DNA from: a virus
Taxonomy: Duplodnaviria > Caudoviricetes
Virus record (IMG/VR): IMGVR_UViG_3300022173_000089
Span: 1 to 37,190 of that record
Length of the DNA: 37,190 bases
Reading direction: 5' to 3' (one strand)
In this document: piece by piece, positions 9,992 through 16,587 of the stretch
Numbering within the stretch: position 1 is the stretch's first letter
How the letters are laid out: every line of letters starts with the position of its first letter
The notes under the pieces: generated by a model
The model's input: only the letters and a program-made list of their open reading frames with translations
Database searches by the model: none
Told to the model about the DNA's origin: nothing
Translations under genes and position numbers: made by a program

Positions 9992-10138
9992 TTGCGGCTC
10001 CCTTGGTGTTGCGGTCGAGTGGTTAAATCTTCGGCCATTGCACGAGTTTCGTGAATTCGTTTTTAGCTATCTTTCGTGCACAAGTTCATAGTTGCAATCA
10101 ATTGGACCGGCAGGCCGAGCGGCGTCTACAGTCTCAAC
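9992..10138. promoter_or_regulatory. Divergent early control region
   Basis: AT-richer gap between divergent operons. Rightward TGGACC-N18-TACAGT (10103-10132) lies 6 nt before ATG 10139. Weak leftward TTCACG-N17-GAAGAT (10055-10027) overlaps the inverted repeat CACGA-gtt-TCGTG. Confidence 0.55.
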
Positions 10139-10348
10139 ATGGACGAACTCAAGACCGAACACTTCGACATCCGAGTACGCGGTGATTTGCTTTTTGTCGC
10201 GCCGACAAAACGGGCGGGAGATTGGCGGTCGCTGCCGGTCGGTGTGCTTGAGGCTTGGCTGTCTCGGCAGTGGCGCGAGCGCGCGATGGACCCGAAGGTT
10301 TCGTTGCCGCTAAGCAGCTTGCCGCAGAGGAGCAACGATGGAAACTGA
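10139..10348 (+). CDS. First rightward gene, hypothetical, probably leaderless
   Basis: ATG immediately follows the predicted -10 box with no SD sequence. No HTH recognised. Confidence 0.55.
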   Translation: MDELKTEHFDIRVRGDLLFVAPTKRAGDWRSLPVGVLEAWLSRQWRERAMDPKVSLPLSSLPQRSNDGN

Positions 10349-10362
10349 TGCTGCCGGCAAGT
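10309..10362 (-). repeat. Decayed attC remnant (copy of 11637-11690)
   Basis: 50/54 identity to the inner part of attC 11623-11713; both R boxes are missing. Confidence 0.8.
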
Positions 10363-10483
10363 GGCGTACCTCGATCTGCTGGCCGCGACGCTGGGCGTGG
10401 ACCTGGGGCATGCCGCAGCGCAGAAGTTCAACGAGGTCAGCGAGCGCGTCGGGTTTCCTGACCGCATCGAACTGGCAGCGTGA
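10361..10483 (+). pseudogene. C-terminal fragment of a MazG-like nucleotide pyrophosphohydrolase
   Basis: Manual translation VAYLDLLAATLGVDLGHAAAQKFNEVSERVGFPDRIELAA* resembles the MazG-like YLDLLA..GIDL..A..KFN tail. The N-terminal part is absent. Confidence 0.55.
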
Positions 10484-10522
10484 AGCCGGGCCTTCGCCGT
10501 TCTACTACTGGTGGAACCGGAC

Positions 10523-10625
10523 GCCCAACGACGGAGGTAACCTGCCATGACCGGCGCTGACGACACTACGCAAGACGGCACGGCGCCGCCCGCCGGGCAT
10601 GGTCAGGTTGACCGACCTGTTGGGC
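10523..10625 (-). mobile_element. Integron attC site (103 bp)
   Basis: Minus strand: GCCCAAC-AGGTC-GGTCAACC-TGACC...GGCAGGTTACC-TCCGTC-GTTGGGC, giving R'', 5-nt spacer, L'' with extrahelical bases, L' and R'. Confidence 0.85.
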
Positions 10626-10933
10626 CGCTGCGCCCGTATATGTGCTGGGCCGGCGACCCCGAGGATGGCGCTGTACTGGCCTGGGCGCATACCGCGCAGG
10701 AGGCCCGAAAGTTGGCATACCCAGCAATCGCAGACTGGACACAAAGCGGGTTTCTCGACGTGCGCGCCAGGTGGCTGAAGAAGCACCCGGAGTACATGCA
10801 GACGCTGAAGCTGAAGGACTGTCCGCACGTCAACGATAACCCGCCGTGCTGCCCGGTGTGTGAACTGTGGGGCAACCCACCGCACCCGGACGGTAACGGC
10901 TGCTGGCACTGCAGCGGTGATGGGGCGCCCTAA
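10547..10933 (+). CDS. Cassette ORF, hypothetical with C-terminal Zn finger
   Basis: GGAGGT RBS and ATG lie inside the attC; CPVC..CWHC motif; the TAA stop is in the next core site. Confidence 0.7.
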   Translation: MTGADDTTQDGTAPPAGHGQVDRPVGPLRPYMCWAGDPEDGAVLAWAHTAQEARKLAYPAIADWTQSGFLDVRARWLKKHPEYMQTLKLKDCPHVNDNPPCCPVCELWGNPPHPDGNGCWHCSGDGAP

Positions 10934-10995
10934 CGTTTCGGTTGAGCCGCAGACGCGGTACCCCGGGGCTGTCGGCCTCGAACGAAATGTTAGGC
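10928..10995 (-). mobile_element. Integron attC site (68 bp)
   Basis: Minus strand: GCCTAAC-ATTTC-GTTCGAGG-CCGAC...CGGCTCAAC-CGAAAC-GTTAGGG. Confidence 0.88.
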
Positions 10996-11018
10996 CTGCG
11001 GGCCAGGAGAACCGAGAC

Positions 11019-11294
11019 ATGGCAACGAGACTGAACCCGACCGGCTTCCTGGTGCTGGAGGCCTGCGATGACTACGAGCAAGTGCTTGCGCTGGATGTTG
11101 GCAAGGACAAGCCGCCAGGTGGCGTGCTGACTTGGGCAGACGCAAAGCACATGCGCTGTTTCTTCCCGACGCGCAAGAGCGCCCGCGAGGCAATCACGCG
11201 TACCGAGCATTACCGCAAGGCCTTCGGGCTCACCACGCTGCCAGAAGCAACGAGTTGCCGCATCGAGTTTGTCGCGGCGGTGGAGCAGGTCTAA
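11019..11294 (+). CDS. Cassette ORF, hypothetical (91 aa)
   Basis: AGGAG RBS just after the attC; the TAA stop is in the next core site. Confidence 0.7.
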   Translation: MATRLNPTGFLVLEACDDYEQVLALDVGKDKPPGGVLTWADAKHMRCFFPTRKSAREAITRTEHYRKAFGLTTLPEATSCRIEFVAAVEQV

Positions 11295-11390
11295 CGACCT
11301 GAGTTCACCGGCAAGGCCCGGCGCCTCAGGGGCTGATTGACGAGAGAACGCCACCCGCCGGGGCTTGTCCGGTGGAACGAAATGTTAGGC
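11289..11390 (-). mobile_element. Integron attC site (102 bp)
   Basis: Minus strand: GCCTAAC-ATTTC-GTTCCACC-GGAC...CCGGTGAAC-TCAGGTC-GTTAGAC. Confidence 0.88.
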
Positions 11391-11413
11391 CCTGGTGGCC
11401 GGAGAGGAAGCGT

Positions 11414-11620
11414 ATGAGCGACCTGATAGCCCGCGTTCGCGCGGCACAAGTGGCAGCCGCCGAAGACGCAGTGATTGCCAGCATTCCAGCGGAGCTGCTC
11501 GAGAGCATACGCAGAGCTGATGAGGCGTTCAAGAAGCGAGGCGGCTGCACTGGCTGCGGCAGCCAAGTTTTGGCTGTGCACTACGGATCGTGCCCGACGC
11601 TGGCAGACGACCTGTATTAA
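11414..11620 (+). CDS. Cassette ORF, hypothetical, possibly Zn-binding (68 aa)
   Basis: GAGGA RBS; CTGC..H..C motif. Confidence 0.65.
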   Translation: MSDLIARVRAAQVAAAEDAVIASIPAELLESIRRADEAFKKRGGCTGCGSQVLAVHYGSCPTLADDLY

Positions 11621-11622
11621 GC

Positions 11623-11713
11623 GCCTAACGACCTGAGCTAAGCGGCTTGCCGCAAAGGAGCAACGATGAAAACTGATGCTGGCGGCAAGTCCGCCTTGAG
11701 CGACGGGTTAGGC
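11623..11713 (-). mobile_element. Integron attC site (91 bp)
   Basis: Minus strand: GCCTAAC-CCGTC-GCTCAAGG-CGGAC...CCGCTTAGC-TCAGGTC-GTTAGGC. Confidence 0.88.
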
Positions 11714-12001
11714 CAGGACACCACGCTGGACAAACGGCTCGGGACTTTGGTGGTATTTCTGCTTGGACCGGATACGAGCGGTTGGGCACCAGAGGTCAGG
11801 CGCCAAGCTGTGGCCGTAGCGAACGAGGCGCAGGCCGCACTGACGAAGGCCAAAACCGAGCGGCAGCAATTTCGCGCGCTGTTGGAAGAATGGCACGAAG
11901 GAGAGTACAGCGGCGGCGACTTCCTGCGGCGTGTCAAGCTGGCGCTCAACATCGGAAAGCCAATCGTGAGCCTCGCGTCGCCCAAGAAGCGCGGGGCCTA
12001 A
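11666..12001 (+). CDS. Cassette ORF, hypothetical (111 aa)
   Basis: AAAGGAG RBS and ATG lie in the attC terminal loop; the TAA stop is in the final core site. Confidence 0.7.
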   Translation: MKTDAGGKSALSDGLGQDTTLDKRLGTLVVFLLGPDTSGWAPEVRRQAVAVANEAQAALTKAKTERQQFRALLEEWHEGEYSGGDFLRRVKLALNIGKPIVSLASPKKRGA

Positions 12002-12014
12002 CTCTCAAATAGGC
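11996..12014 (-). mobile_element. attI-like simple site heading the cassette array
   Basis: Minus strand GCCTATT-TGAGA-GTTAGGC: degenerate L box, 5-bp spacer and a perfect GTTRRRY core, with no long hairpin. Confidence 0.55.
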
Positions 12015-12054: not shown

Positions 12055-12525
12055 ATGCGCCAGCACACGATCACAGCAATCCAGGTTGCAGAGGTATGCG
12101 CTCCGCGCCTATTGATCGGCGACGATCTGCTGCGCCCTGAGCCCAAGCGGCCCGGCCTACAGCTCCCGCGCAACGCCGCGCGCCTGATGCAAGCCGGCGG
12201 ACTCAAGCCCGGCGGATCGCTCATAGTTTCGTTCGTCGGTGAGACAAAACACCGGTTTCCGCATGTGTTCGCCGACAGCGGGAGGCGCTACGATTGGGAG
12301 TTCTCGGCCGGCTCGATCGTCGCAATCTTCGTGCGGCCAGGTGTCGATGCCGCGCACGCTATCGACGCTATTTTCAGGTGCTGCAATCCGATGCTGAGTT
12401 ACCCCGCACTGGTCGATATCGAGCGCAGGCAGGTGGCCTACATCGTGGACGGCGCGCGCGGGGATTTGAAGCTGTGGCGTTGCACAAACGAGTCCGATTT
12501 ATGGCTCCAGCACTTCGCGGCATGA
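12055..12525 (+). CDS. Hypothetical protein coupled to the helicase gene
   Basis: ATGA overlap with the RepA-like gene; no motif recognised. Confidence 0.6.
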   Translation: MRQHTITAIQVAEVCAPRLLIGDDLLRPEPKRPGLQLPRNAARLMQAGGLKPGGSLIVSFVGETKHRFPHVFADSGRRYDWEFSAGSIVAIFVRPGVDAAHAIDAIFRCCNPMLSYPALVDIERRQVAYIVDGARGDLKLWRCTNESDLWLQHFAA

Positions 12526-14424: not shown

Positions 14425-14715
14425 ATGAGCCAAACCGTCGAACAAGTCGCATCCGAACTGGCCGCAGCAGAGCGCCAAGCAGCCGAGCTGAAAGCCAAGC
14501 TCGAACAGCTGCGCGTTGCCGAGCGACCGGCTGCAATCGCCAAGGTGCTCGACCTGATTGCCAAGCATGGCCTGACCCGCAAAGAGTGCGATTCGGCCGC
14601 CTGGCGCAAGCGCGAGTACAAGGCGCGTGGGCCGCGCAAGCCGAAGGTGCCCGCGGCATCGCCGGCGCAAGCGGCACAGCAGGTCCAGCAGCCGCGCGTC
14701 AGCATCGCGGCCTGA
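14425..14715 (+). CDS. H-NS-like protein, oligomerisation domain only
   Basis: Coiled coil then AAIAKVLDLIAKHGLT, as in betaproteobacterial H-NS N-termini. No TW.GRGR.P DNA-binding motif. AAGGA RBS. Confidence 0.65.
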   Translation: MSQTVEQVASELAAAERQAAELKAKLEQLRVAERPAAIAKVLDLIAKHGLTRKECDSAAWRKREYKARGPRKPKVPAASPAQAAQQVQQPRVSIAA

Positions 14716-16131: not shown

Positions 16132-16587
16132 ATGATCACGATCAAGCCGATCGACGTGGTTGCGTGCATCGAAAGCGCCGCGCCGCTGGTGTTTGAGCAC
16201 TGGTCGGAGATCGCTCTCAACAAAGACCTGATGCTGCTCGATCCAAACGTAGAGGCCTACCGCAATCTCCAGGCGCAGGGCGTGCTGGTGGGCCTGGGCG
16301 CATTCGACGACGACGGCGTGATGATCGGCTACAGCGTGAGCCTGCTGGTGCAGCAGCATCTGCACTACGCTGGGCTCAGCTACATGCAAAACGATGTGAT
16401 CTTCGTCACCGCGTCAAAGCGCAATGGCTCGGTCGGGATGCGGTTGATCCAGGCCACAGAAGCCGCTGCGCGAGAGCGCGGCGCCAAGCTCATGATGTGG
16501 CATGCCAAGCAGGGCACGGCGCTCGACGCAGTGCTGCCGCGCATCGGCTACAGCGTGCAGGACATCCTCTACAGCCGCGAGGTTTGA
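16132..16587 (+). CDS. GNAT-family acetyltransferase
   Basis: NDVIFVTASKRNGSVGMRLIQATEAAARERGA acetyl-CoA motif A. Confidence 0.85.
   Translation: MITIKPIDVVACIESAAPLVFEHWSEIALNKDLMLLDPNVEAYRNLQAQGVLVGLGAFDDDGVMIGYSVSLLVQQHLHYAGLSYMQNDVIFVTASKRNGSVGMRLIQATEAAARERGAKLMMWHAKQGTALDAVLPRIGYSVQDILYSREV

Follow-up and report, generated by a model that had tools for sequence, protein, structure and literature searches.

A reversed integron-type cassette array with a likely attI site and no integrase in a complete phage genome

Integrons are treated as bacterial systems, and their gene cassettes are treated as facing away from the attI site. How these cassettes are created is, to our knowledge, an open question. 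In bacterial integrons, the fact that recombination is selective for the attC bottom strand places the cassette genes on the top strand, where they point away from the promoter Pc (PMC5027507; this and the other papers given by PMC number are drawn on in part). Clusters of attC sites without a neighboring integrase gene (CALINs) have also been described in phages: the sections of Qi et al. (2023; PMC9892861) used here list 17 phage CALINs and report that IntI1 recombined five of the six phage sites tested, with a preference for the bottom strand. An earlier note on the DNA analyzed here, which called phage-borne arrays poorly described, therefore overstated the case. Here, we describe an attC array in a virus genome of the Caudoviricetes (IMG/VR record IMGVR_UViG_3300022173_000089), the whole 37,190 nt of which form the window of this analysis. 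The array is a CALIN by definition (at least two attC sites within a few kb, no neighboring intI), and it is neither a canonical cassette array, as the gene polarity is wrong, nor a complete integron, as intI is missing. Judged from its sequence, it is probably a reversed, phage-type integron array with a likely attI site and no integrase, which would gain and lose cassettes with IntI acting in trans.

The phage genome has direct terminal repeats (end repeat of 127 nt), is rated 100% complete and has a podovirus-type gene content, with portal, tail tubular and internal virion genes. The array precedes the replication genes, and from its position before an AAA_25 helicase-like gene we infer that it belongs to an early operon. 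A consensus scan found no sigma-70 promoter on the genome plus strand. A lower-GC gap with short inverted repeats separates divergent genes at 9992-10138; no repressor, Cro or integrase gene is recognizable near it. Between the replication and head genes lie genes for a small coiled-coil protein (14425-14715; H-NS-like by eye, no Pfam match) and a GNAT-like acetyltransferase (16132-16587).

Features of the array, in coordinates of the window
Feature	Position	Strand	Description
Relic of fifth attC	10309-10362	-	L' box and loop only; R', L'' and R'' missing
MazG-like C-terminal fragment	10361-10483	+	last 40 codons; in-frame stop upstream, no start
attC-1	10523-10625	- (top strand = genome minus)	103 nt; covariance model 43.2 bits; loop holds the gene 1 start codon
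Cassette gene 1	10547-10933	+	128 aa; C-terminal CxxC..CxxC; starts inside attC-1, stops on TAA of the attC-2 core
attC-2	10928-10995	-	68 nt; covariance model 32.8 bits
Cassette gene 2	11019-11294	+	91 aa; stop is TAA of the attC-3 core
attC-3	11289-11390	-	102 nt; 7-nt spacer; covariance model 42.7 bits
Cassette gene 3	11414-11620	+	68 aa; alternative GTG at 11372; stop 2 nt before attC-4
attC-4	11623-11713	-	91 nt; 7-nt spacer; covariance model 41.4 bits; loop contains AGGAG and the gene 4 start codon
Cassette gene 4	11666-12001	+	111 aa; starts inside attC-4; stop is TAA of the terminal core
attI-like simple site	11996-12014	-	core box, then 5 nt and a second box in inverted orientation

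The four hairpins of the array had been described in the earlier note as having attC architecture, and two separate searches agree with this. A strict pattern (R'', 5 nt, L'' with an extra base, VTS, L', 5 to 7 nt, R'), scanned on both strands of all 37,190 nt, has exactly four matches, all with the genome minus strand as top strand and none in the opposite orientation. An independent covariance model, whose training set was 15 attC sites taken at other loci (13 of them in the IntI-bearing canonical integron of L079/L105, one in L005 and one in L011), recovers the same four sites on the minus strand at 33-43 bits (rough E-values of 8.9e-9 to 3.6e-6), and the next best match in the genome reaches 10.5 bits. 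All four sites have the imperfect palindrome R''-L''-VTS-L'-R' and its conserved AAC/GTT, along with the extrahelical base and the unpaired spacer by which an attC site marks one strand for recombination, and in each of them the bottom strand, which is the genome plus strand, folds more stably than the top strand. In its minimum-energy fold, attC-4 lacks the canonical register of R-box pairing. Cutting at AA|C reproduces the cassettes of 405, 361, 334, and 373 bp with one ORF each that had been proposed before. The hairpins could instead be chance palindromes, or elements such as terminators or processing sites that work purely at the RNA level without any DNA recombination, and attC-1 and attC-4 do act at the RNA level, since they hold start codons. 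Nevertheless, we regard this explanation as highly improbable: 60 dinucleotide shuffles contained on average 0.017 strict-pattern matches per genome (maximum 1), the attC model matches one strand only, none of the four sites was called as a terminator, the array DNA has no Rfam match, and the neighboring sequences change exactly at the core.

All four cassette ORFs are encoded on the plus strand, i.e., on the bottom strand relative to the attC sites, and none of the four has the canonical arrangement of a top-strand ORF that ends at its own R''. This reversed polarity was overlooked by the earlier note, as were the attI-like end and the decayed fifth unit described below. None of the four genes belongs to a PHROG or Pfam family, and the Atlas matches are to unnamed viral clusters only. 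The structure model of the gene 1 product is poor (pLDDT 63) and that of gene 2 confident (pLDDT 93); in PDB and BFVD the latter matches no fold at E<=0.001, its weak hits being to uncharacterized phage proteins. Gene 3 is preceded by a leader, GGAGAGGAAG, that is common to other phage cassettes; its exact sequence is a called gene without 90% relatives, its homologues having been sought among the fetched loci only. Three partial homologues of gene 4 share its C-terminal half.

Bottom-strand gene polarity is general among phage attC cassettes. A scan with a 16-nt pattern gave 11 loci, about five of which look like chance matches by eye. A pattern derived from sites like those of the window gave 72 IMG/VR loci with 62 distinct attC sites, a sample biased toward attC sites similar to those of the present phage. 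A ribosome site followed by ATG was found on the bottom strand in 50 of these 62 sites and on the top strand in two, with search windows of different length. The covariance model found 265 attC sites in 91 sources; 262 entered the analysis after one truncated site and two opposite-strand duplicates had been dropped, giving 136 distinct cassettes from 50 viral loci. The longest ORF of these cassettes lies on the bottom strand in 90 cases and on the top strand in 46, which is the weaker test. The better-coding ORF by codon score lies on the bottom strand in 131 and on the top strand in five, with a score that was trained on the present phage genome and fails to separate the strands in a canonical control (4 vs 5). 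PHROG families were matched by 32 of 135 bottom-strand ORFs and by none of 115 top-strand ORFs. The canonical controls L079 and L168 have the normal top-strand polarity. Six DNA methyltransferases are among the named cargo of the surveyed cassettes, together with a Mom-like protein, a PAPS reductase-like protein, and a dNMP phosphatase. By analogy with the methyltransferase, Mom-like and MazG-like cargo, the genes of the present array are likely to be early accessory or counter-defense genes.

The right end of the array carries a two-box motif that is unique within the phage genome and is identical at 19 of 20 nt to an array end in L099. That array lies on a contig that appears Mu-like by eye (L099:3499-4741). 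The site is in the register of attI1 (taken from a plasmid record), with 10 of 17 post-core positions matching when counted by eye, and its spacing equals that of attI1 and is one base longer than that of the commonest phage-IntI site. On the attI side, 17 of 53 array ends have a motif of this type vs none of 59 on the other side, in a tally that includes the present genome and uses a motif defined after inspection of the array ends themselves. We regard 11996-12014 as a likely attI. A consensus scan found no promoter-like site that could correspond to Pc on this side, and the cassette genes face the other way. At the left end, the relic of a fifth attC is 93% identical to the inside of attC-4, without a covariance model match. 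It adjoins a gene fragment without a Pfam match, for which all eight tblastn matches are annotated as MazG or pyrophosphohydrolase (best E 4e-4). The fragment is likely to be the remains of a deleted cassette gene for a nucleotide pyrophosphohydrolase, and we infer that the decayed unit at 10309-10484 is a fifth cassette lost by deletion. The loss would have taken place at the end farthest from attI, which is where the oldest cassettes would be.

The claim that the complete genome lacks a tyrosine recombinase holds: PF00589 has no match anywhere in it, an IntI alignment has no match at E<=1 across the whole genome, none of 50 ORFs scanned matches an integrase family, and the serine recombinase/resolvase domain PF00239 is absent as well. 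Close relatives sharing the array region were not found; the helicase has relatives in four loci at 50-63% and the portal in three loci at 58-62%, no related loci were found for the gene at 12055, and the array DNA has no match among GenBank phages and plasmids. These observations bear on the possibility that the array is a frozen relic, built by IntI in another phage and acquired as a block but no longer recombining, with hairpins kept for their ribosome sites, starts and stops. The missing integrase and the decayed fifth unit fit such a relic, as do the portal relatives, which show no attC match within the DNA fetched for them, and the lack of allele variants of the array among the sequences seen. 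The decayed left end, the 7-nt spacers of attC-3 and attC-4, the lack of an observed recombination event, excised circle or empty allele and the absence of a close relative with the locus likewise speak against a mobile array. On the other side, core, L boxes and extrahelical base are preserved in each of the four attC sites, with scores of 33-43 bits, the terminal site is undamaged and almost matches the array end of another phage, and, as DNA, gene 1 shares 86% identity with a cassette of another array. We therefore consider a frozen relic unlikely.

Mobility of the cassettes is supported by the boundaries of gene 1, as far as its sequence can be followed across contigs. The gene has 27 homologues, 25 of which were aligned, with the two weakest left out; a V-[RKG]-[PL] motif encoded by the R'' box is present in about 15 of the 25 by eye. 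DNA was compared for five other contigs (72-89% amino acid identity), the own record and one weak match of 23 residues being set aside. In all five the homologue ends at GCCTAA|C, and the sequence past the C of this core differs in all six contigs, the present phage included. The unit thus recurs in other arrays and breaks off at the core, and turnover there, as the earlier note had supposed, is borne out at the DNA level for cassette 1; no DNA of cassettes 3 and 4 was found in other contigs. An attC precedes the gene 1 homologue in all four contigs with 5' sequence (three by the covariance model, L019 by eye). In L027, what comes after a gene 1 cassette is an attI-like site and then a truncated intI (101 codons; NF011946 E 2e-16), and lysis genes are seen by eye on the other strand downstream of the intI fragment. 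The gene 1 boundaries and the order in L027 indicate a crossover at R', with each hairpin belonging to the gene after it. The conventional top-strand unit of a gene and its following attC was rejected for gene 1, as the downstream sites differ in the six contigs and one of them is an attI.

Gene 2, with 18 matches including itself, has close relatives (80-88%) whose proteins end like its own and distant relatives (45-60%) that lie in ordinary phage operons without attC in six of six loci. As a separate observation, a phrog_12600 gene in the left arm of the phage genome (5303-6061, minus strand) has no attC detected beside it, and homologues 64-79% identical to it follow attC sites in L067:4320-5078, L068:4457-5314 and L037:447-1070, so that one gene family exists in both cassette and non-cassette states.

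Genes and attC sites are shuffled relative to each other, and this happens at both core boxes. Among 219 sites, 49 pairs of long attC sites are at least 80% identical; the same gene follows in two of the 49, and 42 precede sequence at background identity. Fifteen pairs on different genes were inspected (17 were taken from the top of the list and two excluded as the same cassette), and in 13 of them identity ends within 2 nt of R''. Such sharing of attC sites by unrelated genes is what repeated creation of cassettes would give. Conversely, five alleles of gene 1 with 74-86% DNA identity and the same junction have unrelated attC loops (identity of 0.53-0.68 vs 0.61 +/- 0.07 for random pairs). 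These loops are left unexplained by plain bottom-strand excision; they require crossovers at R'', homologous exchange via the shared L''-R'' end, or fast evolution of the loop. Top-strand recombination is known to occur at a low rate (PMC5027507, PMC5371416). An explanation without IntI would see the hairpin ends as short homology linkers for a RecE-like exonuclease and annealing system of the phage: the genome encodes exonuclease VIII (RecE-like), about 20 nt are common to the L''-R'' ends of many attC sites, and the reassortment of loops against genes would be in line with it. However, on the 3' side of gene 1 homology extends only through the 7-nt core, which is too short for annealing, the near-identical attC pairs lose their identity close to R'' as given above, one gene 1 cassette abuts attI and intI, and the attC sites retain their asymmetric extrahelical base on a single strand. 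Homology linkers are thus a quite improbable explanation, somewhat less so than chance or RNA-level hairpins.

Returning to an array recombined by IntI, the source of the integrase has to be considered. In the survey, TIGR02249 scored over its cut-off in two of 76 records, most of which are fragments. The first (G054; L079/L105), a record classed as provirus, consists over its fetched stretch of a canonical integron of bacterial type that carries resistance-like cassettes and is probably host DNA at the provirus edge. The second (G047; L072:2958-6279) has, all on one strand, a ParB-like gene, reversed cassettes, attI, a full intI and a phage integrase. Its IntI is about 52% identical to IntI1 and has relatives in 55 viral loci. 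In 54 of these loci, the attC model detected 33 sites, spread over 19 loci, and 32 of the 33 lie upstream of intI in the usual geometry. The cassettes upstream of the phage intI score as bottom-strand, and thus co-oriented with intI, in 25 of 32 cases. Of 37 loci checked, a set that excludes near-duplicates and most short flanks and includes L027, 30 have a conserved attI-like motif just upstream of intI, with one match likely incidental. The catalytic motifs of the phage IntI relatives are largely intact, and the context of 14 IntI loci contains matches to phage families in all 14 and terminase, portal, tail or lysis genes in six. Complete reversed integrons thus exist inside phages. In one contig, reversed cassettes and intI lie between the genes for the terminase large subunit and the portal (L120:45-7954), and in a Mu-like phage intI follows the transposition B and Gam genes (L139:194-6035). 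A phage-specific IntI clade is suggested by 23 viral proteins at a support of 94/87, below the strong-support mark, with two non-viral references.

As other phages carry a full IntI, attI and reversed cassettes, the integrase acting on the present array need not be that of the host, and phage-borne IntI is a strong rival to the idea of the earlier note that IntI is borrowed from the host. We lean slightly toward a phage-borne supplier, be it a co-infecting phage, a prophage or an intI since lost from the lineage; a chromosomal IntI of the host falls just short of an even chance. The identity of the supplier matters because non-cognate pairs of attI and IntI generally cross-recombine inefficiently (PMC8946536).

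With either supplier, IntI would fold and cut the bottom strand at AA|C, and each hairpin would depart with the gene that follows it; the entry point of new cassettes would be 11996-12014. The genes would be expressed by rightward phage transcription entering at the far end and not from Pc; the hairpin loop or its flank would provide ribosome site and start codon, and the stop would often be part of the next core. In the phages that bear an intI, one phage transcript would read cassettes, attI and intI in a row, and this co-orientation of intI with the cassette genes would explain the reversed polarity. More speculatively, and on balance rather doubtfully, phages may run an integron system of their own, with a phage IntI lineage and attI, reversed cassettes made from ordinary phage genes, and an attC hairpin that serves as a mobile start element, exchanged at the two core boxes and attached to new genes. 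If so, a route for making integron cassettes would be visible that is common to integrase-less phages like the present one. The gene 2 relatives without attC, the near-identical attC sites on unrelated genes and the single gene with unrelated loops all address the origin of cassettes in this sense. A widespread phage version of the integron would amount to site-specific swapping of early accessory and counter-defense genes (methyltransferases, Mom-like and MazG-like proteins), and such cassettes would mirror the anti-phage cassettes of bacterial integrons. The present phage would then be an instance with unusually direct links to an intI.

The array shares its attC anatomy and predicted G|TT crossover with class 1 and sedentary chromosomal integrons, as well as the more stable bottom strand, the size of its cassettes and a putative attI core that keeps the register of attI1 (PMC5027507, PMC5371416, PMC8946536, as far as these are drawn on here). 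In contrast to these, it has no intI and no recognizable Pc, and its hairpins precede the genes and supply their starts. With the phage CALINs of PMC9892861 it has in common a cluster of attC sites without intI, the cargo there being small genes and methyltransferases, but it has an attI-like end and is therefore not a plain CALIN. By primer mapping, the CALIN of phage PH101 (L112:490-2558, NC_029094) has four sites whose top strand is opposite to the annotated genes, i.e., the same reversed polarity as the present array, its two IntI1-recombined sites included. The sections of that paper used here group PH101 with the typical arrays and do not remark on the reversed genes in their text. The array of phage TJE1 (NC_019930, L111) has the canonical polarity; its orf1 and methyltransferase gene, on the top strand, appear by eye to stop inside their attC sites (L111:77-1074). 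The complete integrons in the same sections are captured bacterial ones, without a phage-borne IntI family, and no paper describing reversed phage cassettes or a family of phage IntI turned up in a search of mostly open-access literature. The phage-borne complete integrons (L072/G047; L114-L167) resemble the present array in their reversed cassettes, similar attC sites and two-box attI at the end, and differ from it in having IntI right after attI, often beside a phage integrase, neither of which the present phage has. Integrase-less attC clusters in phages were thus already known, whereas the reversed polarity and the phage-borne IntI family have no counterpart in the literature searched.
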